Source: an uncultured Bacteroidales bacterium (lineage in GTDB: Bacteria; Bacteroidota; Bacteroidia; Bacteroidales; Dysgonomonadaceae). Taken from it: a stretch of 48,569 bases of DNA. A program made the position numbers and the translations under genes. Every line of letters starts with the position of its first letter. The first letter of the stretch is position 1. The stretch lies in NCBI GenBank assembly GCA_964293155.1, contig CAXYYA010000028.1, forward strand, positions 1 through 48,569, read 5' to 3'. Under the pieces are notes generated by a model. It worked only from the letters and a program-made list of their open reading frames with translations, was not told the origin of the DNA and searched no databases. This document shows, piece by piece, positions 1,130-38,161 of the stretch.

Positions 1130-1303
1130 CTGATCGAAATTTTGTGCAAAGAAACATCATTATAACCAAACACGGAATTATTTAACTTATATATTTAAGA
1201 AAACAATGTTAAAACATAAATTTAGGCAACTTCATGCAAACGATTGCATCCGATGTGAAGTACAAATAAATCAAAAGATATATATAAATCAATGAAAAAA
1301 ATG

Positions 1304-1311
1304 TAAATTTG
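1304..1311 (+). promoter_or_regulatory. Candidate -7 promoter box TAaaTTTG upstream of the susC-like gene
   Basis: Exact match to the Bacteroidota primary-sigma -7 consensus TAnnTTTG, 62 nt before ATG 1373. A second match, TAatTTTG, lies at 1358..1365. Confidence 0.3.
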
Positions 1312-1372
1312 TAAAAAATGGATTTTATTGAGTGAAATGTCTGATTTTTATAACTTCTAATTTTGAACGATT

Positions 1373-9984: not shown

Positions 9985-11580
9985 TTAGCTACTGCACACC
10001 TGCAAAGCGGCCGGAACAATATCAATGGTTACGGGAGTTGTGCCGCTGATCTCACCGTCAATTACCAGTTTCTGCGTCGGGTGTGTATCTAACTCCACGT
10101 GTTTCCCCTGAAAATGCTTCACGAATTCGCTACCTTCGGTAGGTTTGTCTTTGAGCAACTGCACCAATGTTTCGGCGGCATTTGCTTCGTTTTCCACGTT
10201 CACGATTACCGTCACGTCCAGCAGCCCGTCGTCCGGTAACGGTTCAGAACCTCCCTGTGCAAAAATGGATGTTTTAGGTGCAGTGTTTGCGATTGTTACG
10301 CTTCCGGTTTGAAACGTGTAGGTTTGATCATCAACTTTTAACGTTGCTTCAAAAATATCTTCTTTTTTAATGTGTTTTATTCCTCCGAGAATGTATCCGA
10401 AAGCGCCCCATTCGTCTTTTAAGCCGTCTTCGGCTTCTTCGGTCATTCCGCGCTCCAAACCTGCGCCTGCAAGCAAAACCATGTAAGAGTCGTTTATTTT
10501 CGCTATATCAATTTTGCGCGTTTTTCCCGAAGTGATCACGGCGCACGCCGTTTCAATGGGTTTCAACCGGATGCCATCGCCGTACAACATGGAAGCCAGG
10601 GCGTTGCTCGTCCCGAACGGAATTATTCCCATTACTGCGTCGGTATTTACCAAGGCTTGAGCCACCTGTGTTACGGTACCGTCGCCTCCGGCGGCAACCA
10701 CAAATTGCTTCCCTTCATTCACCAATTGTTGGGCAATGTCTTTAGCCTGATTTTGCTCTGTAGCTTCATGGAACGTGAGTTCGAAAAAGCTTTTCAACAG
10801 TTCGTTGACTTTATCCAGTTTTTCTTCTTTGGCTGTTCCTGCTGCTGCATTATAGATGATATGCAGTTCATCGGATTTCTTTTCCATGGATATCCCGAAG
10901 CTGTTCAGACTGGCGAATTGTCGTGTATTCGGCTTAACGTTCGGCCTGACTTTCCGGACTTCGTCAATCAAATCCTGATACGAACGCGACGGGTCCAGAA
11001 ATTTGAGATACGCCAAAAGTACGGTCACCGACCGACCTTGTCCCAATGCGCAGTGGATCAAAACTTCTTTTCCGTCTTTTCGTTGCTGATCAATCCATCT
11101 GACAGCCATTTCCAATTGGTTTTTCCGGGGACTATTGTGATCCATTACCGGGATGTTCAGATATTCTACATCACGTCCTAAAAATTGTGTTTCAATGGCA
11201 TCGAATTCAGCCGTAACGTCCAGTATGGCATTGATAGGACTCTCTTTGAGCGATTTCAGATCGGTGAACACCAACCGTCTGCTCAACCATAATCCGTCAC
11301 GGATTTCCTGCAATGGTGGCACATTGTCTCTTGATCGGGCGATCAGATTAAAAATGGTGGCGCCCAGCAAAACCGGAAATATGGCAATTTTTATGTAAAA
11401 CGGTAGTCGCCCGCCCTTGCTTTTAAAAAGCATTTCGCCGAAGTCGGCGAAATAAGCGATCGCGTAATAAAGCGATGAGAGCGATATCCAGATTAAAATG
11501 ATCTGTAGGATAAGAGGAGTGAAAAAACTAAGTACGGCAACAAGTACCGAAAAAATCAGGTAGATGTATCCTCTGTTCAT
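9985..11580 (-). CDS. Membrane-anchored fusion of a dual-specificity (Cys-X5-Arg) phosphatase domain and a diacylglycerol/lipid kinase catalytic domain
   Basis: 531 aa with N-terminal TM helices. Phosphatase P-loop VLIHCALGQGRSV. DAGK_cat-type motifs VVAAGGDGTVTQVAQAL and GIIPFGTSNALA. Confidence 0.75.
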   Translation of the reverse strand: MNRGYIYLIFSVLVAVLSFFTPLILQIILIWISLSSLYYAIAYFADFGEMLFKSKGGRLPFYIKIAIFPVLLGATIFNLIARSRDNVPPLQEIRDGLWLSRRLVFTDLKSLKESPINAILDVTAEFDAIETQFLGRDVEYLNIPVMDHNSPRKNQLEMAVRWIDQQRKDGKEVLIHCALGQGRSVTVLLAYLKFLDPSRSYQDLIDEVRKVRPNVKPNTRQFASLNSFGISMEKKSDELHIIYNAAAGTAKEEKLDKVNELLKSFFELTFHEATEQNQAKDIAQQLVNEGKQFVVAAGGDGTVTQVAQALVNTDAVMGIIPFGTSNALASMLYGDGIRLKPIETACAVITSGKTRKIDIAKINDSYMVLLAGAGLERGMTEEAEDGLKDEWGAFGYILGGIKHIKKEDIFEATLKVDDQTYTFQTGSVTIANTAPKTSIFAQGGSEPLPDDGLLDVTVIVNVENEANAAETLVQLLKDKPTEGSEFVKHFQGKHVELDTHPTQKLVIDGEISGTTPVTIDIVPAALQVCSS

Positions 11581-23663: not shown

Positions 23664-23891
23664 CGTTCATCACACCCTTCCCGCTTACGCGGATTTCTCG
23701 TCATAACGAGCGCACAGGTTCGAGCGGTAATCGGTGTGTGCCGCAGGCAAGAGTTTACTTCGTAACACACGCTTTGCAAAAGCGCGCGAGCACAAGCGGG
23801 ACACGAAGTTTGTAACTTCGTGAACGAAGGCACAGCCATCGTCTCCCAATAAAAAAATCCGCCAAACGCTTCATCGCTTGGCGGATTTTTT
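23664..23891 (+). ncRNA. Candidate structured RNA of unassigned family, ending at an intrinsic terminator
   Basis: GC-rich island in an AT-rich spacer. Local hairpins at 23697..23710, 23770..23784 and 23802..23822. Long-range pairs CGTTCA/TGAACG (23664-69 / 23821-26) and CCCGCTT/AAGCGGG (23680-86 / 23794-800). Terminator at 23851..23891. The only ORF (62 aa, minus strand) is Cys/Arg-rich and not protein-like. Confidence 0.35.
23851..23891. terminator. Bidirectional intrinsic terminator
   Basis: Stem ATCCGCCAAACG / CGCTTGGCGGAT with one mismatch, A7 on the left and T6 on the right. It ends the minus-strand OMP gene and would also end the plus-strand RNA candidate. Confidence 0.8.
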
Positions 23892-23912: not shown

Positions 23913-24743
23913 CTACAAAGGTATTAAGTAAAATGCCGACACGGAAAACCCTGAACTTACTTTATAATCGGCAGCGCTATCTTTCGTAAACGGGAAATTG
24001 AGCGAATATCCAAATTGCAGCTCAAAATTGCCCAAATTTACACTCAAGGGGAGAAACAGCTGGACGTTTAACAAGCCGAATACTTCCTCGGGAGTGGTTG
24101 CAAGGTTTATGGTTTCTTTGGCAAAATAGCCCGAAATTTCAGGGCCGAAATAAAAACGGTTGTTTTTCCCAAAATCTAAAAAATAAAAACCGGCAAAAAC
24201 GCTCGGACTGAGCGTATAGAATGTCTGACTCCCGAAAAGCAAATTGTTGGAGATACGTGCTCCATACCAGTCTTTTCGGTACGAAAGCGTTAAGTTGGCA
24301 TTGTTTTCATAGGGATAAATGGCTGTGGTGTCGGAATTGTAAATGAGACGGCTGTATGAACCGCTGGCTCTGAAGTGCTTGCTTTTATCCAGGTAAAGGC
24401 CGTATCCAAGCGTCAGCATTGTTGTGGTGTAGCCGGGCGAAAGCTGGTCGTACCATATTCCGGATGCTCCTGCAAAGAGTCCGTATTTGCTGAAATAATA
24501 AACGTGACCACTTACATTCGCTAAGTCGGTACCGATTTCTCTGCCTGCAAAGAACGTTTTATTATTGTAATTAAGGCCTGCGTACAAAAAGTCTTTCTTT
24601 TCACTAATTATTTCAGACAATAAAGTTTCATCACTAAATATCAAATCATTTAGTAATGAGTCAATTCTATCGGTTTGAGCGGCGGCTGAAATACCGTATA
24701 GAAGGAACAATATAAAGAATGCTTTTTTCATATGTTTATTCAT
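23913..24743 (-). CDS. Putative outer-membrane beta-barrel protein, last gene of ECF regulon 1
   Basis: 276 aa with a signal peptide ending AAAQ. Alternating aromatic/polar strands rich in Y, F, G, S and N. Confidence 0.45.
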   Translation of the reverse strand: MNKHMKKAFFILFLLYGISAAAQTDRIDSLLNDLIFSDETLLSEIISEKKDFLYAGLNYNNKTFFAGREIGTDLANVSGHVYYFSKYGLFAGASGIWYDQLSPGYTTTMLTLGYGLYLDKSKHFRASGSYSRLIYNSDTTAIYPYENNANLTLSYRKDWYGARISNNLLFGSQTFYTLSPSVFAGFYFLDFGKNNRFYFGPEISGYFAKETINLATTPEEVFGLLNVQLFLPLSVNLGNFELQFGYSLNFPFTKDSAADYKVSSGFSVSAFYLIPL

Positions 24744-24916
24744 TGATTTTTACATTATGGTCACATAGCTCATTCGAACGTACGAGAGAACACGCGTTTT
24801 AATTAATCCCCTGTTTCAAAATTATTCCGGTATGGCAGTTATTCCAATACCTTTAATAAAAACTTTTGAAAGAGCGTGAGCTCTTTCAAAAGTAATTTAA
24901 TTTTCATAATTAAGGT

Positions 24917-25558
24917 TTATTTGCCGCCACCTTTCATGCCGCCACCTTTTCCACCACCTTCGCCAAGCTGCTGCATTTGTTGCTGCATTTGCTGTTGCTG
25001 GCTGCCGGTAGATATATTCTGGTGTTCTCTGATTTGGTTGCGTTGTTGTTCCTTAACCTGTTCTTTGGTTTGCGTTGCAACTCCTTTGTTCAACCGGTTT
25101 TGATCTCTATACTGCAATTTCAGCATATTGCGTTGTTCTTCCGACAGAGAATTCATAAAGGCTTCTCTTTTTTCAGCTCTGGTCATCGTTTGGTTTTGAA
25201 GCAATTCAATTTGTTCGGGGGTAAGAGAGTTCTTGAATTGTTCGCGATTTCTCTGATTTACCATGCTCTGAATATCAGCATTTACCTGATTCCCTGTTGC
25301 TGAATGTAACCGATCCCGATCCCTCTGTTGCAATTGGTCAGCATCTTCAAGCGGATCGTGAATGCGGTCTCTTGTCTGGTCTTTCAACTGATCTTTCAGT
25401 TGATCTTTAGTTTGATCTTTGGTCTGATCTTTCAATTGATCCTTTTTTTCAATTTTGGTTTGGTCTTTTGCTCTTATAGGTGTGGTTTGAGCAAATGTAT
25501 TTGCGGCTAAAAAAAGAAAAGCTACAAATAAAACTCCGAAGATTGATTTTGTTTTCAT
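24917..25558 (-). CDS. Secreted low-complexity protein with LTXXQ-type (CpxP/Spy-like) motifs and a Gly-rich tail
   Basis: 213 aa with a signal peptide. Contains (K/R)DQ(T/L) tetrapeptide repeats, then SLTPEQIELL and SLSEEQRNML. The C-terminus is QQQQMQQQMQQLGEGGGKGGGMKGGGK. Confidence 0.6.
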   Translation of the reverse strand: MKTKSIFGVLFVAFLFLAANTFAQTTPIRAKDQTKIEKKDQLKDQTKDQTKDQLKDQLKDQTRDRIHDPLEDADQLQQRDRDRLHSATGNQVNADIQSMVNQRNREQFKNSLTPEQIELLQNQTMTRAEKREAFMNSLSEEQRNMLKLQYRDQNRLNKGVATQTKEQVKEQQRNQIREHQNISTGSQQQQMQQQMQQLGEGGGKGGGMKGGGK

Positions 25559-25594
25559 AATTCTTGTTTTTAATAATTAATTCGTTTCCGTTTT

Positions 25595-25630
25595 GTATAA
25601 GATAACCGAACAAGTCTTGTAATACCCTAC
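25595..25630 (-). promoter_or_regulatory. ECF-type promoter motif, regulon 1, site 2 (GTAGGGTATT-N10-TTCGGTTA)
   Basis: The minus strand reads GTAGGGTATTACAAGACTTGTTCGGTTATC, 45 nt upstream of ATG 25558. The same two blocks at the same spacing occur upstream of the sigma gene (27461..27493). Confidence 0.55.
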
Positions 25631-25691
25631 TTTTTTATTGAGATTTTTTCAATTAAATACTTTTTTTACTTTGAAAGGCGGTTCCAGCGGT

Positions 25692-26948
25692 TTATCTTGG
25701 AGATTGTTTTCCGCCTTCTCTTCTCATTCCGCCACCTTCTTTTTCAACCGGAGTGTTGGACAACTGGTTTTTACGATTCCGTTGTTCATCTTTCACGTTC
25801 TCTTTTATTCCGTCTTTGTGAACATCTTTGCCGAATTCTATTTCAGTGTTTTGATCCCTGAGCAATTGTCTTTGTTCGTTTGTAAGGGATTTAATGAACG
25901 CTTTCTGTCTTTCAGTTCTGCTCAACGTTTTGTCTTCCAGAATGTCGAGTTGCTTTTGGGTCAGTGAGTTTCTGAATCGGTTTTTAGCCGGTTCCGCATT
26001 ATTGTCTGCTGTTTCCCCCTGGCGATTTTGAAGATTCGTGCGTTCCTGATTTTCGGTTTGCAGTTTTGTCTCCGCTTCGTCTAGTAAGTTTTTAATTTCG
26101 TTTAAATGATTTTCCTTTAGCTCATTCGACAAATTCGGTTCTACTTTTAACGGGGTTGGCTCCTGCAACTGAATTTTCTCCTGACTCATCGTTCTCTGCC
26201 TTTCCGGTTCGGGTTTCATTTCGTCTTTTGGAATGACGGCAGGTTTTTCTTCCGTGATATTCATATCTTTTTCTTCTACGGCTACAGTTACTTCCGGAGT
26301 TACCTCAGTAGGATTGTTGTGATGCTGAGAAATAATTTCGAACTGTTTATCCGCCTTCAGCCTTGCTTTCTGACCGGTCGTTATCACAACTTCGTTTTTT
26401 TCGGCAAACTCCACAAGCATCACTTTTCCATGTTCGCAATTCACCTGGTATTCATTTTCGCGAGCCGTTACCAAAAATCGTGTTCCTAAAACCACCGTTT
26501 TGGCCTTTTCAGAAACAACTTCGAACCTACTTCCGCTTTCCACTTCAAAATAAGCTTCGCCGTTTAGCTTTGTTGTCCGGCTGAACTTCCACAGCAAAGG
26601 TTTGTAGCTCAGCGACGAATTGGCGTGCAACACCACCTTGGAATTGTCCGGCAAAAGAAAACTCTTTTCAGCTATCACGGTTTTCACATTCTTTGTATAT
26701 AATGTTGCTGTAACAGCAAATGAAACCAATAAAGCGATCGAGGCTACTGCCGCGTATTTCAACAGTTGGAAATACCGGACGGGCTGAACTTTCTTCCCGG
26801 TTGGGTTAGCATCCAGTTTTGCTTCCATTTCCATCCAAATATCCTCTTTGGACCTGATCCATTGAGGTCGGGTGTTGGAAATGATATCTTCTACTTCCTT
26901 CGAAAATACGATATTTTCTTTTTCGGAATATGTATGTTTAATAATCAT
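25692..26948 (-). CDS. FecR-family anti-sigma factor with an extended low-complexity C-terminal domain
   Basis: 418 aa. One TM helix (AAVASIALLVSFAVTATLY). FecR-type periplasmic domain (LPDNSKVVLHANSSLSY ... GEAYFEV ... VLGTRFLV). The C-terminal ~100 aa are homologous to the downstream secreted protein. Confidence 0.8.
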   Translation of the reverse strand: MIIKHTYSEKENIVFSKEVEDIISNTRPQWIRSKEDIWMEMEAKLDANPTGKKVQPVRYFQLLKYAAVASIALLVSFAVTATLYTKNVKTVIAEKSFLLPDNSKVVLHANSSLSYKPLLWKFSRTTKLNGEAYFEVESGSRFEVVSEKAKTVVLGTRFLVTARENEYQVNCEHGKVMLVEFAEKNEVVITTGQKARLKADKQFEIISQHHNNPTEVTPEVTVAVEEKDMNITEEKPAVIPKDEMKPEPERQRTMSQEKIQLQEPTPLKVEPNLSNELKENHLNEIKNLLDEAETKLQTENQERTNLQNRQGETADNNAEPAKNRFRNSLTQKQLDILEDKTLSRTERQKAFIKSLTNEQRQLLRDQNTEIEFGKDVHKDGIKENVKDEQRNRKNQLSNTPVEKEGGGMRREGGKQSPR

Positions 26949-26957
26949 AGGGTTTGG

Positions 26958-27440
26958 TTATAATAATGATTTTTTCAAAAATTGTAATGCTGCACTCATT
27001 CGTTTTTCTACAGCTTTCACACTTAAGCCCAGACGTTCGGCAATTTCCCAGTATTTCAAGCCCTCAATCCTCGACATTAGAAATACGGCTCGTTGCTTTT
27101 CGTTCAAACTGTTAAGTGCGATTTTATACTTTTCAAGTAACTCTTTGTGACTCAATGTATCTTCTGTCGAAGGCTCGTTACCGTAATAACGGATCGAAGC
27201 TATATAGTTCATTTCCAATACATCACGTCTATATTTACTAACAAACATGTCACCGGCAATTTTATAGAGGAGACGTTTTGCTGTTGTTTTATCTACCTCG
27301 AATTGTTTCTCCCAAAGCCGCATAAAAACCTCCTGTGCTATGTCTGAAGCATCATCCGGCCCCGCACCTCTATAATACAGGTAACCCCGTACCGAATCGA
27401 AGTAGGTATCGAACAAATATTTAAAATCCTCTTTTGTCAA
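26958..27440 (-). CDS. ECF-type RNA polymerase sigma factor (regulon 1)
   Basis: 160 aa. Region 2 DIAQEVFMRLWE. Region 4 HTH LNEKQRAVFLMSRIEGLKYWEIAERLGLSVKAVEKRMS. TTG start, since a stop lies 5 codons upstream. Confidence 0.85.
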   Translation of the reverse strand: MTKEDFKYLFDTYFDSVRGYLYYRGAGPDDASDIAQEVFMRLWEKQFEVDKTTAKRLLYKIAGDMFVSKYRRDVLEMNYIASIRYYGNEPSTEDTLSHKELLEKYKIALNSLNEKQRAVFLMSRIEGLKYWEIAERLGLSVKAVEKRMSAALQFLKKSLL

Positions 27441-27460: not shown

Positions 27461-27493
27461 GTTAGTATCCGAATGAATAAGCAAATACCCTAC
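27461..27493 (-). promoter_or_regulatory. ECF-type promoter motif, regulon 1, site 1 (GTAGGGTATT-N10-TTCGGATA), autoregulatory position
   Basis: The minus strand reads GTAGGGTATTTGCTTATTCATTCGGATAC. The -10-like block lies 26 nt upstream of the sigma start codon. Confidence 0.55.
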
Positions 27494-27708: not shown

Positions 27709-28323
27709 TTATTTCACCAAATTCAAACCATCCTTTGCCGATTGATCCGTTGGCGAGATAATGAGAACCGTGTTGAAAAGCCGTTGCGCATCGTTCTTTT
27801 TCCCGAGGAAATATTTTGTCCAGGCGCTCATCAGCGTAGAGTAATAATCGAACGGATACATCTGTTGCACCAAATCGAAATATTTCTCGGCTTCCATAAA
27901 GTTTTTCCGATAATAATAAATGTTTCCCAGCGCGTAATTTACCCGCGAATTCACCTTGTCCAGCAAAAGAATTTTTTTGTAAACCGCTTCCAATTCATCG
28001 GTTTTTTTCTGCGCTTCCAGCGGATAGCACAGGCCGAGCAGCGCTTCAACCGCTTTAGGAGCTATGTCCACCGCTTTTTGGTAAAATTTCTTGCTGCTTT
28101 CGTAATCTTTGGAAAGATAATACAACCAACCCATTCTCAGAAATTTATGATAATCGAATCCATTCAGGCTGTTTAATTCGCTGATGGCTTTCTGGTAATC
28201 GCCTGACGACTCGTACTGATAACTGTTTGCAAAAACCTGCGAAGGATTCACCTGTGCCGATGCGGTAATTAAGCCCGCCGCCAGCAGAAAGGTGAGTACC
28301 GTTTTTTTAATTAAAAGTTCCAT
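27709..28323 (-). CDS. Secreted TPR-repeat protein
   Basis: 204 aa with a signal peptide. Repeated A-x3-Y/F-x2-A-type TPR helices. Its start overlaps the upstream gene by 13 nt. Confidence 0.7.
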   Translation of the reverse strand: MELLIKKTVLTFLLAAGLITASAQVNPSQVFANSYQYESSGDYQKAISELNSLNGFDYHKFLRMGWLYYLSKDYESSKKFYQKAVDIAPKAVEALLGLCYPLEAQKKTDELEAVYKKILLLDKVNSRVNYALGNIYYYRKNFMEAEKYFDLVQQMYPFDYYSTLMSAWTKYFLGKKNDAQRLFNTVLIISPTDQSAKDGLNLVK

Positions 28324-29696
28324 TGTAACGCGAGATTTAAAAGATGATTATTATATTTGTATGTTGTGTAATTGGTTGACGAATAGGCGTATCCTTCCCT
28401 TTGTTGCCATTGATATCCGGCCGATAACATGGTTTTTTTGATAAAATAGGAGAGGGAAGCACCCGCAAGGGCTTTAACGGGATCGTACGTGTCGTAAACT
28501 AAAAATGAGTGCCCGGTAATGTAATTTTGATGATTCCCGATGCTGAACGCCCCATCCAGCCACAGCGATTTGGCTAATTTTACACCCAAATTTTGAGAAA
28601 AAACAACTTGTGTGCCTGTCCAGGCGTTTTGGTTGTAGATGGCTGCAAGAGCGGTTGTTCCGTAAAAATCGAGGTTTCCCAGCGGATAATAAGTGAGCGA
28701 TCCTTTTGCCTGATACTGATGTCCGCCGCCGAAATTGGAATAAGCCACGGCAATTTCGGGCAAGGTGTACGCAGAGCGTTTGTTAAGAAATGCCAGCATG
28801 GAGAAAGCCGAAATCGTGTTTCCGGTTGATGCGGTGTAATATATGGAAGGATAATAAAAACCGCCTCCGCCAGGGCCCCCGCCTCCTCCACCCGGGCCGT
28901 ATCCGCCGGCACGCGTTCCCATAGTGGCAGATGCAACAGCGGTCGTAGTGTACGGGATCGCTTTATCAATCTTTTCGATGTTGTAATACGCGCCGGCAAA
29001 TCCCCAGGTAACGTTATTATCCGAGAAAAAATCAAATCCGGCGATCAATTGATGTTGAGACAATCTCTCTTCTTTTACCAATCCCGTGCTGTTTGACCGC
29101 TGAAACTTGGTGTTATACAGTTGATATCCGAGTTTTAGCTTGGCCTTGTCGGAGAGTTTAAACCCAACGCCCAGCGTAGTGAATACCATATCCTGAAACT
29201 GGTTCAGCGAATCGTAGCCCATAAAATTTGAACGCAGATCGGGTTTGTTGTCGTTCGTAAGATAACCGCCTGAGAGCGCAATAAAATCCATCGCCGAAGG
29301 CGAATATCCGATAGCGGCCTGCGTGTGTGGCGCGAGCGATTTGGCAAGTATATCGGCATTGTTTTTCTGGCCGCTCAGCAGGTAGGCGTAATACAGGCTT
29401 TCCAACAGAGCCGGCTCGGTGGAAGTTTCTGCAAGCGTTTTTTTGTAAAATTCCGCCGCTTTGGCATAATTTTTCAGTTCATAATAAGCAATAGCGGTGC
29501 GGTAATTCAGATAATAAAAATCAATGTTTTGCGCCTGCGCCTGTTTGCTGGTCTCAATCAGATTTTTATAATCCTTTTGCAGGTATTGCTGATAGGTAAT
29601 GCTGTCAATGCGGGTTGCTTCCGGGCTTTGTTGCGCCTGTAGCGCAAACGTCCACATCATCATTACCGTTGCGAATGTTATACCCATTCGATACAT
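28311..29696 (-). CDS. Outer-membrane protein with an N-terminal TPR region and a C-terminal beta-barrel
   Basis: 461 aa with a signal peptide ending ALQAQQ. TPR-like N-terminal ~110 aa. Contains the Gly tract GGYGPGGGGGGPGGGGFYYP. The barrel-like C-terminal part ends in LALQWNF (terminal aromatic residue). Confidence 0.6.
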   Translation of the reverse strand: MYRMGITFATVMMMWTFALQAQQSPEATRIDSITYQQYLQKDYKNLIETSKQAQAQNIDFYYLNYRTAIAYYELKNYAKAAEFYKKTLAETSTEPALLESLYYAYLLSGQKNNADILAKSLAPHTQAAIGYSPSAMDFIALSGGYLTNDNKPDLRSNFMGYDSLNQFQDMVFTTLGVGFKLSDKAKLKLGYQLYNTKFQRSNSTGLVKEERLSQHQLIAGFDFFSDNNVTWGFAGAYYNIEKIDKAIPYTTTAVASATMGTRAGGYGPGGGGGGPGGGGFYYPSIYYTASTGNTISAFSMLAFLNKRSAYTLPEIAVAYSNFGGGHQYQAKGSLTYYPLGNLDFYGTTALAAIYNQNAWTGTQVVFSQNLGVKLAKSLWLDGAFSIGNHQNYITGHSFLVYDTYDPVKALAGASLSYFIKKTMLSAGYQWQQREGYAYSSTNYTTYKYNNHLLNLALQWNF

Positions 29697-31849
29697 AAGA
29701 CATGTTTTTTAGTGTTAATTTCCATTCTGTTTTTTATTACCGTGATAGTTGATTCTTTCACCGGCATTTTTATATTGAACGACTTAGCGTCTATAATGCT
29801 TTGATATACAATTTTTTCAGGATAAAAAATATGATCCGATTCCGTTAATTGCGAACGGTAATTTATGGTTGTGAAAATAACAAAAGGCGCCAAAAAATCC
29901 TGAAACCAACGCGTTCCGAAGGGGTGTTCCTTGGTAAGCGGTATTTTATCGGTAACGGAGATCTCTTTTTCGTTGGACAGCAATAATTTAAAGCAACTAC
30001 GGTAAAACAAATACAACGGCGATGATTTTCTTCCTTCAAAATCGGTAAAATAGAACATGGTGCCATCGTTTTCCACGTACGCCACGGCTTTCGATTTTTC
30101 GCAACGGATGTAGGTTTTGTTGTATTCGTCGGTAGCAATTGTCCAGGGATAATTTTCGTTGTCGTAGGTAACTTTCAGCAACCGGCCCGGTTTGCCTTCG
30201 AAAGCATCTTGCGCCAGCAACGAAGGAACTACGTTGAAGATCGTAGTATCCTGTTTCGGAACCTCGCCGATGTGCAAGAGCGGCTTACCGGCTGTTTTTT
30301 CAAAGAAATAACCCATGGGGTACGCATGTGTTGCCGACCCGATTTCGGGCGACAACTGCACCTGAAAATGAAGGTGCGGCTCCGGCGAACGTCCCGAATT
30401 GCCGCATGCGGCAAGTACGGTTCCTTTTGTTACATAATCGCCGGTTCGCACGTTAAAACTGTCTTTTTTAAGGTGGCTTAGCTGCGAGTATAACCCGTTC
30501 AAATGATTGATAATGATCGTATTTCCCCAATTCTTTTTCGTGTTTACATCATTTATTTCATTGTCTTCGGTAATGTTGCTGATCATGTACACATAACCGT
30601 CGGCCGGAGCCAACACCGGTTTGTTGTAACAGTAAAAATCTTCTTTCTGCGCACACCGGCCGAAACACGTTTTTCCTTCTTCGTCCGTGATCATAAAATC
30701 CAACGCTTTTCCCCATGCGCCCAGGTGGGTTATTGTACCGTTGTAGCCCTGCGTTACACGCCATTCTCCCAAAAAAGGCAATTGCATTTTAAACAGCATG
30801 TTTTGTGCGAAACGCTGCATGTAATTCACGTTTTTATATACCGTTTTCTCGGGATTATAATATTGAATATACGGAAAAATAAAGAACCGGCTAAAGCTGC
30901 GTTGTTTGAGAATGAACAGTACGAGAATGGATAAAAGACTGAATGATAATGTGTAAGAAGACAGCCCGGTATCCGATATCAAACTCTCCACGCTGGCATA
31001 AAACAGAAACAGGGCGGGCGTGAGGCCAATGACCAGTATGTAGCTGTAGATGTTGGGGATGATAAAGAAGCTTCCGATTGCCATTCCCCAGAAAATGTAG
31101 TTAACGCCAGCCAGATCCTGCGTGAGTTCTGCGATATCCACGCCAAGCAATTTACTGATGATAAATGCAAAGAAAAATCCAAAAAATGCTACCGTGGATT
31201 TGATGCGTGAGTGAAAAAGCAATGCAACGGCTATGATGATGCCGACTAACACGCTGTCGGTAAAGAAAATGGATGCCAATGTTTTAAAATAATAAAACAA
31301 CATGGGCGGCAAGTGCGCATTATCGAGTGAGTGGACGAAAGTGTACCACGGTACTTTCATTTGCCCGGCCAACACGATGGTGAAACGGTCGAACGGAATA
31401 ATGTACTCAATGTTCGTGAACGATTTTACCGAAAGATCAACGATGAACAACGTGAAAACAAACGGCAGAGTAAGCACGGGAATATCGTGCTTCGCAAAAA
31501 CCGATTCGAGCCATACCGTGAACATGAATACCAGAATAACCGATAAAACAAAAAGAATAATGAACGAGCCGTTCACGTAAAATTTGTAAACCAGACTCAA
31601 CCCGACAAAAACGGCGTTAAATCCGTACAATCCGCTCTTGATCCTTTTCTTCGAAAATCCGAGCCCGTGCGCGATGATGTTCGTCAGAACCACAGCCGAA
31701 AGTCCGCCCAATCCCAGCCGGATGTCCAGCATGCTAAGCACCAGCAAGATGATCGCTAACCACCTGCTTTGCGAGAAAAATATCATGGCATAGCTGTTCA
31801 GCGTGCCATCGAGATACATCAACGCGTATGATTTGAGACTTTGTTTCAT
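29678..31849 (-). CDS. Polytopic membrane domain (urea-transporter-like, tentative) fused to a C-terminal M23 (LytM/lysostaphin-type) metallopeptidase
   Basis: About 330 aa of TM helices, with N-terminal LNSYAMIFFSQSRW resembling UT-family starts. M23 motifs follow: HLGAWGKALDF and GNSGRSPEPHLHFQV. ATG 31849 is preferred; the track's TTG is at 31870. The stop overlaps the next gene by 19 nt. Confidence 0.65.
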   Translation of the reverse strand: MKQSLKSYALMYLDGTLNSYAMIFFSQSRWLAIILLVLSMLDIRLGLGGLSAVVLTNIIAHGLGFSKKRIKSGLYGFNAVFVGLSLVYKFYVNGSFIILFVLSVILVFMFTVWLESVFAKHDIPVLTLPFVFTLFIVDLSVKSFTNIEYIIPFDRFTIVLAGQMKVPWYTFVHSLDNAHLPPMLFYYFKTLASIFFTDSVLVGIIIAVALLFHSRIKSTVAFFGFFFAFIISKLLGVDIAELTQDLAGVNYIFWGMAIGSFFIIPNIYSYILVIGLTPALFLFYASVESLISDTGLSSYTLSFSLLSILVLFILKQRSFSRFFIFPYIQYYNPEKTVYKNVNYMQRFAQNMLFKMQLPFLGEWRVTQGYNGTITHLGAWGKALDFMITDEEGKTCFGRCAQKEDFYCYNKPVLAPADGYVYMISNITEDNEINDVNTKKNWGNTIIINHLNGLYSQLSHLKKDSFNVRTGDYVTKGTVLAACGNSGRSPEPHLHFQVQLSPEIGSATHAYPMGYFFEKTAGKPLLHIGEVPKQDTTIFNVVPSLLAQDAFEGKPGRLLKVTYDNENYPWTIATDEYNKTYIRCEKSKAVAYVENDGTMFYFTDFEGRKSSPLYLFYRSCFKLLLSNEKEISVTDKIPLTKEHPFGTRWFQDFLAPFVIFTTINYRSQLTESDHIFYPEKIVYQSIIDAKSFNIKMPVKESTITVIKNRMEINTKKHVLCIEWV

Positions 31850-31949
31850 TTGTTTATGATTTCGGGACAAAAAACAAAGACATACGGAACAAGACTTTGC
31901 GTTGCATTATTCAACACCGGCCTGATGACGGTAAATTGCGTTGCTATTT

Positions 31950-34719: not shown

Positions 34720-35328
34720 TTACGGTTGTACGATATCGGAGAACTGTGACAAATTTAATACTTTTGGTTGATAATCAATGCCTCTGCGCGATAAATTTCG
34801 TACAAACGCCCGCAAATGGTTCTCCGAAGCGCGCAAGAGGTTGGAATAAATCCGTTGGATATCGGGATTGTCGGTTTTCTGCAAGTGCGATTGCAGGTCT
34901 TCGATATCCTGTTCTTCGATCAACGCTCCGGCTTGCAGCGCCTCGATGAGCGTTGTGCCTTTGGTGAGCTCGGTGTACATTTTCTGTAACTCACGATTGG
35001 TAAACACGCCTTCCGCTTTCGCGAGGTCTTTTAACCCATACGTATCCACAAGCCACATCATGGCGTTCTGGTGCACCGTTTCGCTACGCGAAATATTTCG
35101 GAAGATAGGGATGCTATACTGCCGGGCGTAAAACGTATAAACGTCGTGGGCAAGTTTTTCTTCTTCGCGCATGTACTCAATGCTTTGGATGTCGGCCTTC
35201 GTCAGATTTTGCGTTGAAGCCGGTATTCCCATCGTCTTATTCTGTGTGGTTTTAGCCCCATCGGCAGCTTGGGGCAACAAAAGTATTGCCCCTGCCGCGA
35301 TCAGAATGAATAAATATTTTGTTTTCAT
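34720..35328 (-). CDS. Secreted ferritin-like DUF2202-type protein (copy 2)
   Basis: 202 aa with a signal peptide. Motifs MREEEKLAHDVY, SE..H and a second half LIEEQDIEDL ... SENHLRAF. Confidence 0.6.
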   Translation of the reverse strand: MKTKYLFILIAAGAILLLPQAADGAKTTQNKTMGIPASTQNLTKADIQSIEYMREEEKLAHDVYTFYARQYSIPIFRNISRSETVHQNAMMWLVDTYGLKDLAKAEGVFTNRELQKMYTELTKGTTLIEALQAGALIEEQDIEDLQSHLQKTDNPDIQRIYSNLLRASENHLRAFVRNLSRRGIDYQPKVLNLSQFSDIVQP

Positions 35329-35332
35329 TTTT

Positions 35333-36025
35333 TTATGTGTTTATGATAGCGTTGAAATCATCGTTGCTCAATAATTGAGGTTGATATGCAATACCGTTGA
35401 ATTTGAGATTTGCGACAAAGGCTTTCAAATGAAACTGTGAAGCACGGAGTAGATTACCGTAAATTCTTTTGATAAACGGGTTTTCTGTTTCGGCTATTTC
35501 TCTTTGAAGATCAATAATATCGTGTTCTTCGATAAAAGCGCCGGCTTTGTAAGCATCTACAACTGTAAGGGCTTCGGTTGTAAGCTTTGTGTATAAATTT
35601 TGCAATTCTTCGATGTTAAATACCCCCGGTACCGTTTCGGCGGGAGTCTCAATTTTGTAGAGATTAATAAGCCAGGCGATAGCTTTTCCGTGTGCTATCT
35701 CGCTTTTGGAGATGTTGCTGAACACGGGTCTGGCGAATTTTTCGTTAAAATACACATACACATTATTGGCTAATTTTTCTTCTTCGCGCATGTACAGGAT
35801 GCTGTTTATTTCACTTTCGGTGAGTGGCGCGAGTTGCGTATTTGTCAACAAACAAAGCGAATCGGTGGTTGCAGCCAGTGTTGCATCAAGTCGCGTAGTT
35901 GAAACTGCGTTTATCAATGCGGCTTGTTCGGCATTTTCTTCCGGTGAATTTACGCTGTTCGCTTCACAACCGAAAAGCAAAATTGCAAGAAATGCCACGA
36001 CGGAAATTTTTTGATAAGTTTTCAT
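35333..36025 (-). CDS. Secreted ferritin-like DUF2202-type protein (copy 1)
   Basis: 230 aa with lipoprotein-like signal LLFGCE. Motifs MREEEKLANNVY, SKSEIAHGKA and FIEEHDIIDL ... ASQFHLKAF. Paralog of the next gene, 4 nt apart. Confidence 0.6.
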   Translation of the reverse strand: MKTYQKISVVAFLAILLFGCEANSVNSPEENAEQAALINAVSTTRLDATLAATTDSLCLLTNTQLAPLTESEINSILYMREEEKLANNVYVYFNEKFARPVFSNISKSEIAHGKAIAWLINLYKIETPAETVPGVFNIEELQNLYTKLTTEALTVVDAYKAGAFIEEHDIIDLQREIAETENPFIKRIYGNLLRASQFHLKAFVANLKFNGIAYQPQLLSNDDFNAIINT

Positions 36026-36077
36026 AATGAAAAAGTTGGTTTACTGTGATTAAGTTAATGAGATAAGCGTTTTGTAA

Positions 36078-36108
36078 GAAAAAATGGGGAGCGAATCCCC
36101 ATTTTTTT
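36078..36108 (-). terminator. Bidirectional intrinsic terminator after the Gly/Arg repeat protein gene
   Basis: ATGGGGA-GCGAA-TCCCCAT flanked by A7 and T7, 16 nt after stop codon 36124. Confidence 0.8.
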
Positions 36109-36123
36109 GTGGTTGGTGCGTGG

Positions 36124-36687
36124 TTATTTTGTGGTTTCCCTACGGTCGCAAATACCGTTTTTATTGGCGTCCACAAAATTTACCGCACTGCCTTTTCCAT
36201 TCCGAAGGCCGGTGCCTTTCCCTGTACCGCGTCCCTGGCGCGGTGTTCCGTTTTCGAAGTTGTCACAAATGCCGTCTTTGTCGGCATCTACGAAATTTGC
36301 TCCACCACCTCTGCCGTTACGCAGTCCGTTGCCATAGCCTTGTCCGCGTCCTCCACGGGGAGTTCCGTTTTCGAAATTGTCGCACACGCCATCTTTATCG
36401 GCATCCACAAAGAAGCGTCCTTGTCCTCTGCCGTTGCGTAATCCCTGGCCTTTGCCTTGTCCGCGGCCGCTACCGTCGAGCAGTCGTTGTTTGCCGTTGG
36501 CATTCGGATTTCCGGGTGTTCCGTTCTCGAAATTATCGCAAACGCCGTTGTTGTTTTTGTCCACAAATGCAGGTCCGGTTTGAGCGGTTTTCGCCGTTTC
36601 CTTTGCTGCCTGATTTTGATTTTGGGCGGTTGCTAATCCTATGGTGGCAACCAGCGCCATTGCAGTGATAAATACTTTTGTTTTCAT
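36124..36687 (-). CDS. Secreted repeat protein with four FVDxDKDG(V/I)CDNFENGTP modules separated by Gly/Arg-rich linkers
   Basis: 187 aa with a signal peptide ending ATAQ. The modules carry a DxDxDG calcium-loop-like motif and one Cys each. Linkers are of the type GRGQGYGNGLRNGRGGG. Repeats 2 and 3 are 39 aa each. Confidence 0.7.
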   Translation of the reverse strand: MKTKVFITAMALVATIGLATAQNQNQAAKETAKTAQTGPAFVDKNNNGVCDNFENGTPGNPNANGKQRLLDGSGRGQGKGQGLRNGRGQGRFFVDADKDGVCDNFENGTPRGGRGQGYGNGLRNGRGGGANFVDADKDGICDNFENGTPRQGRGTGKGTGLRNGKGSAVNFVDANKNGICDRRETTK

Positions 36688-36717
36688 AATAATCTTATTT
36701 TTAATTGTTTATTTAAT

Positions 36718-37293
36718 TTATCTGGTTTCGTTCCAATCGCGTCCGTAGCGATGCCGGTATCCGCGTCCCATACCGAGACTGTCGGTTCGGTTATATCCGT
36801 ATCCGTACCCGCGACGGGCATTCACCGTTTCATCGCGATACAACGGTAGGAATGCTCTTTCTAATTGAGCGCACTGCGCGTCGTTGCACGCCGATTTTAT
36901 CTTCAGGTAGAAATCGTTTGTAAGCTTTTTCAGTTCTGCGTGATGATTTCCGATGTGATCCGATAACGCATTTAATTTTGTTTCGTCGGGTTTCGGTTTG
37001 TTCAACTCCATGAACATTTCGTTTTTCAGCGAATCCATTTCGTAAATCAGCAGGTTGGCACGGGGTTGAAATTCCCGGTTCGCTGCGCGAAAAACATCCA
37101 TCTGATCATTGTCGAATCCCAGCCTTTGCCGAAAATACCTTCCGGTGAGCGGGGGCTGGCCTTCGTCAATAACAATTGCTGTGTTATCGTCTTTTTCCTG
37201 CTGATTGTGATAGACGATAGTTCCGATGGTTGTCAGGTTCAGCACCACAAGCAGTGCAATTACCCACATCATTATTTTATTCGTCTTATTCAT
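36718..37293 (-). CDS. Membrane-anchored periplasmic Spy/CpxP/ZraP-like protein (heavy-metal-sensor type), tentative
   Basis: 191 aa with an N-terminal TM anchor (IMMWVIALLVVLNLTTIGTIVY) and a helical periplasmic part. Occupies the usual position after an ECF sigma/anti-sigma pair. Overlaps the anti-sigma stop by 8 nt. Confidence 0.5.
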   Translation of the reverse strand: MNKTNKIMMWVIALLVVLNLTTIGTIVYHNQQEKDDNTAIVIDEGQPPLTGRYFRQRLGFDNDQMDVFRAANREFQPRANLLIYEMDSLKNEMFMELNKPKPDETKLNALSDHIGNHHAELKKLTNDFYLKIKSACNDAQCAQLERAFLPLYRDETVNARRGYGYGYNRTDSLGMGRGYRHRYGRDWNETR

Positions 37294-37579
37294 AATCGTC
37301 GAAATTATAATAGCCTAAATTCTCGATCTGACTGTCGTTTATGTTCATCGTAAACTCGTGAGAAACGCTTTTCTGGTAACTGTTACCGATGCTTACGCCT
37401 AAAAATGCAACGGCAGCAAGGCTGGCAGCCACAACCACAGTTTGCCAAACGGGCGTTCTGCGACGCTCCGGTTGTTGCCTTTTTTCGATTTCGGCCATCA
37501 CCCGCGTACTCAGGAACGGATTATGTTCCGTTTGCTTTTCGCGTTTGATGAAATCGTCTATGTACTGTTCCGTTTTCAT
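37286..37579 (-). CDS. Small single-pass anti-sigma factor (regulon 2)
   Basis: 97 aa with one TM helix (WQTVVVAASLAAVAFLGVSIG). Lies immediately downstream of the ECF sigma gene. Confidence 0.6.
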   Translation of the reverse strand: MKTEQYIDDFIKREKQTEHNPFLSTRVMAEIEKRQQPERRRTPVWQTVVVAASLAAVAFLGVSIGNSYQKSVSHEFTMNINDSQIENLGYYNFDDYE

Positions 37580-37596
37580 TTTTTGTTCGTTTTATA

Positions 37597-37626
37597 GGTT
37601 AGACATTTGTATTGATTATTTCCTAC
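37597..37626 (-). promoter_or_regulatory. ECF-type promoter motif, regulon 2, internal site (GTAGGAAA-N13-TGTCTAA)
   Basis: The minus strand reads GTAGGAAATAATCAATACAAATGTCTAACC. The -35-like block overlaps the last codons and stop of the sigma gene. The -10-like block is 20 nt before the anti-sigma ATG 37579. Confidence 0.6.
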
Positions 37627-38161
37627 GGTCATATTCTAATTTTTTTTGCAGAGTGCTTTTTGCACGTTGTAAAAGTTGTTCCACAGCGCCTTCCGATTTT
37701 TTCATGACGGCGGCAATTTCTTTCTGCGGTAATTCTTCGTATTTACTCAGGATGAAAGCTGTTCGTTGCGAATCGGGCAGGGAATTGATGGCGTTTTTTA
37801 TCCGCTTGTCCCGTTCCGATTGTTCCAATCGTTCCAACGGCGTCTTTTCCTCACTCTGTTTGTGAAAGATGTTTTCCAACGATTCCACCACGCGGTTCTT
37901 CTTTTTTCGATTCACAAAATTGATACTCGCGTTTACGGTAATCCGGTACAGCCATGTAACAAATTGGGCTTCGCCCTTGAAATCGGGCAACGATTGATAT
38001 ATTTTAATGAAAACTTCCTGCGTGATATCTTCCGCATCTGCTTTGGAGTGCACAAAACCCAACGTCGTTCGGAACACCATACCCTGGTATTTCTCCATAA
38101 GTTCTTTAAAGACAATGGTGTTACCTGAAATTATTTCTTGTATGAGTTGCTCGTCCGACAT
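37616..38161 (-). CDS. ECF-type RNA polymerase sigma factor (regulon 2)
   Basis: 181 aa. Region 2 EDITQEVFIKIYQ. Region 4 LPDSQRTAFILSKYEELPQKEIAAVMKKSEGAVEQLLQRA. Confidence 0.9.
   Translation of the reverse strand: MSDEQLIQEIISGNTIVFKELMEKYQGMVFRTTLGFVHSKADAEDITQEVFIKIYQSLPDFKGEAQFVTWLYRITVNASINFVNRKKKNRVVESLENIFHKQSEEKTPLERLEQSERDKRIKNAINSLPDSQRTAFILSKYEELPQKEIAAVMKKSEGAVEQLLQRAKSTLQKKLEYDRRK

Follow-up and report, generated by a model that had tools for sequence, protein, structure and literature searches.

We studied a four-gene cassette on the minus strand of contig CAXYYA010000028.1 (assembly GCA_964293155.1), from an uncultured Bacteroidales bacterium of the Dysgonomonadaceae; the window is the whole stretch analysed, 48,569 nucleotides (nt). 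The cassette encodes an extracytoplasmic function (ECF) sigma factor and a FecR-type anti-sigma factor in which the usual C-terminal domain, FecR_C, has been replaced by a tethered copy of the small secreted LTXXQ-type protein encoded next to it. The swap is conserved in related loci, its origin can be traced to a canonical cell-surface signalling system, and the free copy lies behind the same promoter-like motif as the sigma gene. A feedback or titration mechanism is plausible on this basis. We propose, with a probability of about 0.45, that the cassette is an ECF sigma/FecR envelope switch derived from TonB-transducer signalling, in which the tethered LTXXQ copy serves negative feedback on the switch's own product.

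The four genes lie head to tail:

26958..27440, minus strand: ECF sigma factor of the FecI-like / Bacteroidetes type, 160 amino acids (aa), with Pfam Sigma70_r2 and Sigma70_r4_2
25692..26948, minus strand: 418-aa fusion of a FecR-type anti-sigma factor with an LTXXQ-type region, with PF04773 and without PF16344
24917..25558, minus strand: free secreted LTXXQ-type paralog, 213 aa, with a signal peptide, KDQ-type repeats, a core at aa 101-181, a Q-rich segment and a Gly-rich tail
23913..24743, minus strand: fourth gene, encoding a 276-aa secreted protein with a signal peptide and no transmembrane (TM) helix

The sigma factor scored 112.6 bits against NCBIfam TIGR02985 (Sig70_bacteroi1), under the cut-off of 126.4, and matched FecI models at E=1e-22. 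The start codon of the anti-sigma gene is 9 nt past the sigma stop codon. The window belongs to a Petrimonas sp. metagenome-assembled genome, and the anti-sigma protein is identical to the database entry 'FecR family protein [Petrimonas sp.]'. FecR-type anti-sigma factors are the textbook partners of TonB-dependent transducers. No such transducer adjoins the cassette: the two TonB-dependent receptors encoded in the window, at 1373-4315 and at 40873-43191, lie at a distance of over 13 kb, and an STN signalling domain was not found in either of them. The other fusion loci likewise have no TonB-dependent transducer. The absence of a transducer, claimed by an earlier note made from the sequence of the window, was thus confirmed. 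The anti-sigma factor also lacks FecR_C (PF16344).

The C-terminal ~170 residues of the anti-sigma factor are homologous to the mature 213-aa free protein. BLASTP with composition-based adjustment aligned fusion residues 246-391 with free residues 27-174 (E=7e-14, 31% identity, 155 columns), from fusion residue 246 and free residue 27 up to the third helix. We then compared Smith-Waterman scores with those of 2000 composition-preserving shuffles. The C-terminal halves scored 192 against 60+/-9 for the shuffled sequences (z=14.5), and the 80-residue core scored 142 against 37+/-6.5 (z=16.1). Therefore, the similarity is homology and not an artefact of low complexity or of K/E/Q richness. The paralogy had been claimed on the basis of two 42-residue blocks; both blocks are present, a recount gave the same 19 identities in 42 positions, and the formal alignment supports the claim.

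Profile alignment matched fusion hidden Markov model (HMM) positions ~210-414 to free-protein residues ~27-200. The free protein aligned with the whole region past the FecR domain, i.e., the low-complexity part, the core, the third helix and the Gly-rich tail; the linker of the fusion aligned with the low-complexity N-terminal part of the free protein. As judged from these alignments, the tethered unit is the entire mature free protein, not merely a core or 'sensor domain'. The earlier note was therefore correct in that a homologous free copy is encoded alongside the anti-sigma gene, and too narrow in that it regarded this copy as the sensor domain only. The Gly-rich tails that it had described in both proteins are general: the Gly fraction of the last 20 residues was 0.21 in 28 fusions and 0.29 in 14 free paralogs, compared with ~0.04 in the remainder of each protein. 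The LTxxQ-type motifs are SLTQKQ and SLTNEQ in the fusion, and SLTPEQ and SLSEEQ in the free protein.

An AlphaFold2 (AF2) model of the fusion, built on 16 homologs, and the conservation among homologs (given as the majority-residue fraction) divided the anti-sigma factor into the following parts; pLDDT is the confidence score of the model:

aa 1-56 of the anti-sigma factor, minus strand: cytoplasmic sigma-binding part, with helices at aa 17-46 (pLDDT ~70-80)
26700..26780, minus strand: single TM helix, aa 57-83 (AF2 helix, pLDDT ~65-80; Kyte-Doolittle windows >1.6 at residues 60-85)
26328..26693, minus strand: periplasmic FecR beta-domain, aa 86-207 (all-beta in AF2, pLDDT 80-91; conservation 0.71)
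25998..26321, minus strand: disordered low-complexity linker of ~108 aa, aa 210-317 (pLDDT ~30; conservation 0.37)
25833..25988, minus strand: tethered LTXXQ-type helical core, aa 321-372, RFRNSLTQKQLDILEDKTLSRTERQKAFIKSLTNEQRQLLRDQ (four short helices, pLDDT 82-87; conservation 0.70)
25695..25763, minus strand: Gly-rich basic C-terminal tail, aa 396-418, ending EKEGGGMRREGGKQSPR (from the fusion sequence)

The FecR family PF04773 was matched at residues 95-176 with 48.5 bits against a cut-off of 24 (E=1.2e-12). The small helical domain of the fusion model is exactly the block shared with the free protein. Residues F325, S328, L329, Q333, I336, L337, F351, L355, E358, Q359, L362 and L363 of the core were invariant in the 16 homologs, which are just 32-83% identical overall. 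The tethered core is conserved to the same extent as the FecR domain (0.70 and 0.71) and the linker to 0.37, indicating that the tethered domain is under selection. Both LTXXQ copies are placed in the periplasm, the free one by its signal peptide and the tethered one by the TM topology of the fusion.

The free protein matched the domain HMM at E=1.6e-29, and its AF2 domain model reached a pLDDT of 90-93 over the core. Its gene contains one further feature:

25374-25468, minus strand: tandem DNA repeats with 12/24/36-nt units encoding (K/R)DQ(L/T) peptides

The copy number of this repeat differs widely among free-paralog orthologs, with ~17 units in locus L002, and repeat expansion accounts for the range of free-paralog lengths (195-299 aa).

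We assessed to which family the shared domain belongs. In the models of both proteins, the two LTXXQ motifs open helices. The full-length fusion and free proteins gave no Pfam LTXXQ match at E<=1, and NCBIfam, too, gave nothing significant for the domain with these full proteins. When 20 domain fragments were searched against Pfam, six matched the LTXXQ family PF07813 at E<=10 (best 0.0075), all below the Pfam threshold; matches of these fragments to the QLQ family were judged spurious. CpxP, Spy and ZraP were not found in a PDB sequence profile search with the domain, and a broad family profile reached Spy among PDB sequences only at E=0.58. The Metal_resist / ZraP-like family (PF13801) was also considered and rejected, as hhalign against three PF13801 proteins of the same genomes returned a probability of 0.04%.

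The link to known proteins runs through intermediate sequences. Of 120 non-fusion relatives matched by the domain profile, 52 matched PF07813 at E<=0.01 (best 1.2e-12), three matched PF13801, and no other family was matched by more than seven. In NCBIfam, distant relatives matched the CpxP family model (three members, best 1.7e-8), Spy (two) and CpxP (one). From these matches, we place the domain in the LTXXQ-motif family, as a divergent unit of two to three motifs. On CpxP/Spy membership the evidence points both ways, and a link via intermediates only is a weak one. The motifs had been described earlier as characteristic of CpxP/Spy; that there are two of them was upheld, whereas direct Pfam, PDB and fold matches were not obtained and only the intermediates (52/120) connect the families.

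Next, we surveyed the recurrence of the fusion. A large protein database clustered at 90% contained 19 full-length fusion homologs, and PF16344 (FecR_C) was absent from the window anti-sigma factor and from all 19+8 fusion homologs examined; the next relatives are ~290 aa long and all carry it. A word-indexed search with the free protein returned a single relative, and the others were obtained by an exhaustive search of 1.84 billion representatives with the domain profile, which yielded 256 proteins at E<=1e-3 in three length classes. The first comprises ~22 fusion-length representatives at 50% clustering, with FecR as the only family in all eight tested; the second, free-paralog-like proteins of 190-270 aa; and the third, numerous small secreted proteins (130-170 aa), each with three matches to the unit. 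Among the proteins from the same search, P0175 (461 aa) has ~10 copies of an LTXXQ-type motif followed by a type IX C-terminal sorting domain (Por_Secre_tail), indicating that some LTXXQ-type relatives are exported to the cell surface.

The order of sigma gene, fusion gene, free paralog and fourth-gene homolog was found in eight distinct loci (the window, L001, L002, L004, L005/L010, L006, L008 and L009), whose flanking genes are unrelated to each other. In every locus, a sigma ortholog of 160-161 aa is encoded immediately 5' of the fusion gene. Thus, the FecR-LTXXQ fusion with an adjoining free paralog, which the earlier note had described in the window, recurs elsewhere with different flanks. 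The fusion is rare; it is carried by ~5 of 185,579 species-representative genomes, all of them uncultured Bacteroidales or Bacteroidota metagenome-assembled genomes.

The closest non-fusion relatives of the anti-sigma factor are 41-47% identical over the N-terminal half and belong to loci that encode the three members of a canonical cell-surface signalling system: a sigma factor of 161 aa, a FecR protein of ~290 aa with FecR_C, and an overlapping ~840-aa TonB-dependent receptor containing an N-terminal STN/FecR_C-like signalling domain, CarboxypepD_reg, Plug and a barrel. In eight of these sister loci (L011-L014, L018, L023, L024 and L047), there come behind the transducer gene first a free LTXXQ-type protein (domain HMM E=1e-17 to 1e-24) and then a homolog of the fourth gene (E=1e-34 to 1e-89, weakest in L014, where it is clipped by the contig end). 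The ancestor-like order is promoter motif P1, sigma, FecR with FecR_C, transducer, promoter motif P2, free LTXXQ protein and fourth gene. Since FecR_C, the transducer, the free protein and the fourth gene are all kept in the sister loci, the fusion family represents the derived state, a rewired cell-surface signalling system in which the transducer was lost, FecR_C was replaced by a tethered LTXXQ copy, and the free copy and the fourth gene were kept.

A ninth sister-type locus, L048, whose contig begins within the transducer gene, contains tandem free LTXXQ-type genes (150 aa and 224 aa; 1136-3611) behind the transducer gene and a single P2 motif, followed by a fourth-gene homolog. This tandem duplication is a plausible pre-fusion intermediate. 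In a neighbour-joining tree of the 56-column core, a short alignment analysed without bootstrap, the tethered domains formed one clade that branches internally in the same order as the free copies, a pattern that fits a single fusion event, apparently occurring once, with parallel divergence of the tethered and free copies afterwards.

The promoter-like motif was found by aligning the intergenic regions of the loci. The following elements mark the putative transcription units:

27467..27493, minus strand: P1, ECF-type promoter-like motif GTAGGGTATTTGCTTATTCATTCGGAT; 27 nt separate its end from the sigma start codon downstream
25604..25630, minus strand: P2, the motif's second copy, GTAGGGTATTACAAGACTTGTTCGGTT; 46 nt separate its end from the free-paralog start codon downstream
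24862..24893, minus strand: intrinsic-terminator-like hairpin past the free gene, with a 14-bp stem and a U-run (RNA fold -19.7 kcal/mol, z=-6.6)
23852..23891, minus strand: terminator hairpin past the fourth gene, with a 17-bp stem and a U-run (RNA fold -26 kcal/mol, z=-6.3)

The bipartite motif GTAGGGTA-N14-CGG(A/T)T has exactly two matches in the 48.5-kb window, compared with 0.03 expected. In all fusion loci it lies upstream of the sigma gene and again upstream of the free-paralog gene, and in the sister loci it stands before the sigma gene (in most) and just past the transducer gene. When a spacing of 12-18 nt was allowed between GTAGGGT and CGG, 47 of 48 matches over all loci had 15 nt. 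A search of the window for further regulon sites with two mismatches allowed gave two extra matches, which is at chance level (1.09 expected). ECF sigma factors are usually autoregulated. Because of its position, its conservation and this usual autoregulation, the motif is probably the cognate promoter of the sigma factor, acting in autoregulation at P1 and on the free LTXXQ gene at P2.

Hairpins at the position equivalent to that past the free gene were seen by eye in other fusion loci. Past the anti-sigma gene, no hairpin was found in the window, and no separate promoter motif precedes the fourth gene there. Given the two motif copies and the hairpins, the 'operon' is therefore two units, P1-sigma-anti-sigma and P2-free paralog-(hairpin)-fourth gene, unless the P1 transcript reads through into the free gene. 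The earlier description of a single operon is revised accordingly.

What lies behind P2 varies. In L016 (9409-10414) and L031 (9394-10354), the P2 motif past the transducer gene precedes a ~298-aa lipoprotein of no family, which replaces the LTXXQ protein and the fourth gene; that is, the P2 cargo differs between related systems. A third copy of GTAGGGTA-N14-CGG(A/T)T was observed ahead of a DUF2202 gene in L018 (12049-12075) and L031 (10446-10472). This connects DUF2202 proteins with the same putative regulon and hints at a theme of metal or oxidative stress.

The protein encoded by the fourth gene had no match in Pfam, NCBIfam or the PDB. Besides the signal peptide, it shows an F+Y content of 18% and alternating hydrophobic 9-mers, and is probably an outer-membrane beta-barrel. 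The earlier label of a small outer-membrane protein is only an inference from the signal peptide, the lack of a TM helix and the aromatic-rich alternating pattern. Homologs of the fourth gene (E=1e-62 to 1e-152; 1e-34 to 1e-89 in the eight sister loci given above) are present in every locus with a free paralog and always follow the free LTXXQ gene. The two co-occur in 17 of 17 distinct loci having either (the window, L001, L002, L004, L005, L006, L008, L009, L011-L014, L018, L023, L024, L047 and L048), and both are missing from sister loci such as L015, L016, L021 and L031. This strict pairing of an LTXXQ protein with an uncharacterised ~280-aa secreted protein represents a new two-gene module.

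We propose the following mechanism. The cpxP gene is induced by the Cpx pathway, and CpxP inhibits CpxA until it is titrated or degraded. In the Fox system of Pseudomonas aeruginosa, the signalling domain of the transducer binds the anti-sigma factor's C-terminal domain when no signal is present and guards it against proteolysis (PMC11637429); this protection logic is our template. In the cassette, the sigma factor would recognise GTAGGGTA-N14-CGG(A/T)T, driving the sigma and anti-sigma genes at P1 and the free paralog at P2; read-through would express the fourth gene. The tethered LTXXQ module, in place of FecR_C, would hold a periplasmic partner and so keep the anti-sigma factor safe from site-1 proteolysis. 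The preferred partner would be the free paralog, held by homotypic pairing like that of Spy/CpxP dimers, or else a ligand or client bound by both copies. If the free protein became scarce, or occupied by clients or ligand, the tether would be left unprotected and the anti-sigma factor would be degraded. The sigma factor would then be freed and more free protein made, giving a negative feedback loop that gauges the free pool of the switch's own product. Because the free copy lies behind P2, the proposed partnership would close the loop, and because this is the same motif as that of the sigma gene, the feedback idea gains a concrete basis. A bolder form of this idea, which we hold only tentatively and consider on the whole unlikely, is that the anti-sigma factor is a 'product-mimic' sensor: the free and tethered modules would pair or compete for one partner, the switch would read the unoccupied output pool, and the whole would be a receptor-independent periplasmic homeostat that originated in a single deletion-fusion.

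Several observations weigh against the feedback proposal. The window fusion domain reached only 12.8 bits against PF07813, below the cut-off of 24.3 (E=0.21), and no fold match of the domain model to Spy or CpxP was found. Dimerisation as borrowed from Spy/CpxP is therefore by analogy only. The promoters were assigned from where the motif lies and how it is conserved, rather than from transcript mapping. The identity of the tethered and free copies within one genome (0.36-0.65) is not above that between genomes, and thus gives no signal of co-evolution or homogenisation. The same lack of elevated identity speaks for an independent sensor, in which the tethered module would detect a periplasmic cue (misfolded envelope proteins or metal) alone, and the free paralog would act solely as a regulon effector, such as a chaperone or metal buffer, and not touch the anti-sigma factor; the paralogy would then reflect reuse of a ligand-binding module. 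Bacteroidales do have sigma/anti-sigma pairs with a Spy-like effector and no tethered copy, such as cirYZ-spy (PMC13114119) and the pair at 34720-38161 of the window, and the small multi-motif relatives of the domain, too, sit behind ECF sigma / putative anti-sigma pairs. However, the free protein would still compete for the same ligand, hence exerting indirect feedback, and reuse of a ligand-binding module leaves unexplained that the tether has kept the mature protein in full, with its linker and Gly-rich tail. We regard independent sensing as improbable, though a serious competitor.

That the free protein and the fourth gene strictly co-occur points equally to the fourth protein as the relevant partner, which also counts against the feedback proposal. 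The fourth protein would bind the LTXXQ modules and replace the transducer as the surface sensor, the tethered copy would span the periplasm to it through the ~108-aa linker, and the free paralog would be a chaperone or adaptor competing for it. In addition to the 17/17 loci, this agrees with the length and disorder of the linker in the AF2 model and with the Dma family of Bacteroides anti-sigma factors, which are reported to reach the outer membrane (PMC10927553). Nevertheless, the fourth protein matched no family or structure that would mark it as a beta-barrel, a strong hairpin separates the free gene from the fourth gene, and the latter lacks a promoter motif of its own; we consider this partner swap rather unlikely. 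Finally, the similarity could be compositional, or the fusion a recent, degenerate and non-functional remnant of a broken signalling locus. K, E, Q and N abound in the two proteins, which also have repeats, and the family is as rare as given above. Against this, the composition-corrected E-value (7e-14) and the shuffles (z=14-16), the 12 invariant core residues and a core conserved like the FecR domain, and the gene order and both promoter motifs kept across loci whose fusions are 32-83% identical to that of the window refute the idea of an artefact or of decay, which we give almost no weight.

The cassette can be compared with known systems. Like FecI/FecR/FecA (e.g., FoxI/FoxR/FoxA), it has a FecI-like sigma factor, and its anti-sigma factor has a cytoplasmic N-terminus, one TM helix and a periplasmic PF04773 domain; the promoter is auto-regulated, here putatively. 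The full trio with FecR_C and transducer is present in the sister loci, whereas the fusion has neither FecR_C nor transducer, the partner-binding domain having been swapped for a tethered copy of an apparently self-regulated protein. In CpxP-CpxA and ZraP-ZraS, two-component systems for envelope stress in Escherichia coli, a small periplasmic LTXXQ protein, itself a target of the pathway, is thought to inhibit the sensor and to be titrated by stress. Their sensors are histidine kinases without an LTXXQ domain; here, an ECF anti-sigma factor bears a paralog of the feedback protein. The proposed feedback is analogous in logic to CpxP-CpxA; a Spy/CpxP fold, in which a long bent alpha-helical hairpin forms a cradle-shaped dimer, or a Spy/CpxP activity is no more than a possibility for the domain. 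How the periplasmic end of FecR controls proteolysis is itself still under revision (PMC11637429).

ECF241 is a FecI-like clade, mostly from Bacteroidetes, in which the periplasmic domain of the putative anti-sigma factor sometimes matches PF13801 (Metal_resist, Spy/ZraP-like) and no canonical FecR is present (Casas-Pastor et al. 2021, PMC7826278). Its partners have two TM helices, a putative C-terminal anti-sigma domain and no FecR, and an adjoining free paralog was not described; our anti-sigma factor has a single TM helix, with the anti-sigma part at the N-terminus, a FecR domain and, at the C-terminus, the LTXXQ-type region, and thus falls outside the definition of that clade. In cirYZ-spy of Phocaeicola vulgatus, an ECF sigma/anti-sigma pair is co-transcribed with a Spy-like periplasmic protein and strongly induced by envelope or host stress (PMC13114119), whereas its anti-sigma factor, as described, bears no chaperone copy and is not FecR-type. 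Neither cirYZ-spy nor ECF241 joins a FecR domain to a copy of an adjoining, co-regulated free protein. The Dma proteins are reported to be Bacteroidota anti-sigma factors in which the periplasmic C-terminal part has likewise been exchanged, for a module extending across the periplasm; Dma reportedly spans both membranes, whereas here the module, a soluble helical domain of small size, has a free paralog (PMC10927553). Neither FecR joined to LTXXQ nor a fusion of an anti-sigma factor with CpxP/Spy was described in the full-text literature searched, a scope that left out most subscription-journal papers. The parts (ECF sigma factor, FecR domain, LTXXQ protein) are all known; the wiring is unusual and conserved, with a traceable origin.

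The fusion family is a natural experiment, in which a transducer-binding domain was traded for a small secreted protein that lies behind the sigma gene's motif. If the tethered and free copies interact or compete, they would provide a compact, transferable feedback design for ECF switches, as well as a handle on the binding partners of LTXXQ proteins in Bacteroidota, where envelope-stress sensing is poorly understood. If the product-mimic idea is true, this would be a previously undescribed ECF signalling design. In addition, GTAGGGTA-N14-CGG(A/T)T, as a predicted promoter, offers a recognition sequence that can be tested for a Bacteroidales FecI-like sigma clade.

A second ECF cassette (34720-38161, minus strand), which resembles Phocaeicola vulgatus cirYZ-spy, is located ~7 kb upstream on the same strand:

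37616-38161, minus strand: ECF sigma factor, 181 aa
37286-37579, minus strand: putative single-TM anti-sigma factor, 97 aa
36718-37293, minus strand: membrane-anchored PF13801 Metal_resist (Spy/ZraP-like) protein
36124-36687, minus strand: Gly/Asn-rich secreted protein, 187 aa
35333-36025 and 34720-35328, minus strand: two DUF2202 ferritin/rubrerythrin-like proteins

In L001 and L004, this cassette directly adjoins the fusion cassette. The 187-aa secreted protein contains four copies of F-V-D-x-(N/D)-K-(N/D)-G-(V/I)-C-D-N-F-E-N-G-T with Gly/Arg/Asn-rich spacers between them and has no family match; this Cys motif is present in fewer copies in its L001 (145 aa) and L004 (108 aa) orthologs. The protein may bind a metal.

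Directly upstream of P1, two overlapping genes (27709-29696, minus strand) encode secreted TPR proteins of 204 aa and 461 aa, a pair that is not kept beside the cassette in other loci. The 461-aa protein has a poly-Gly insert, GGYGPGGGGGGPGGGGF, and a Tyr/Gly/Ser-rich C-terminal half resembling a beta-barrel. Further upstream, a 730-aa protein (29678-31870, minus strand) unites, in an unusual combination, a urea-transporter domain at the N-terminus (PF03253, E=1e-44) and an M23 peptidase domain at the C-terminus (PF01551). Elsewhere in the window, a 531-aa protein (9985-11580, minus strand) joins a dual-specificity phosphatase to a diacylglycerol-kinase catalytic domain and YegS_C.

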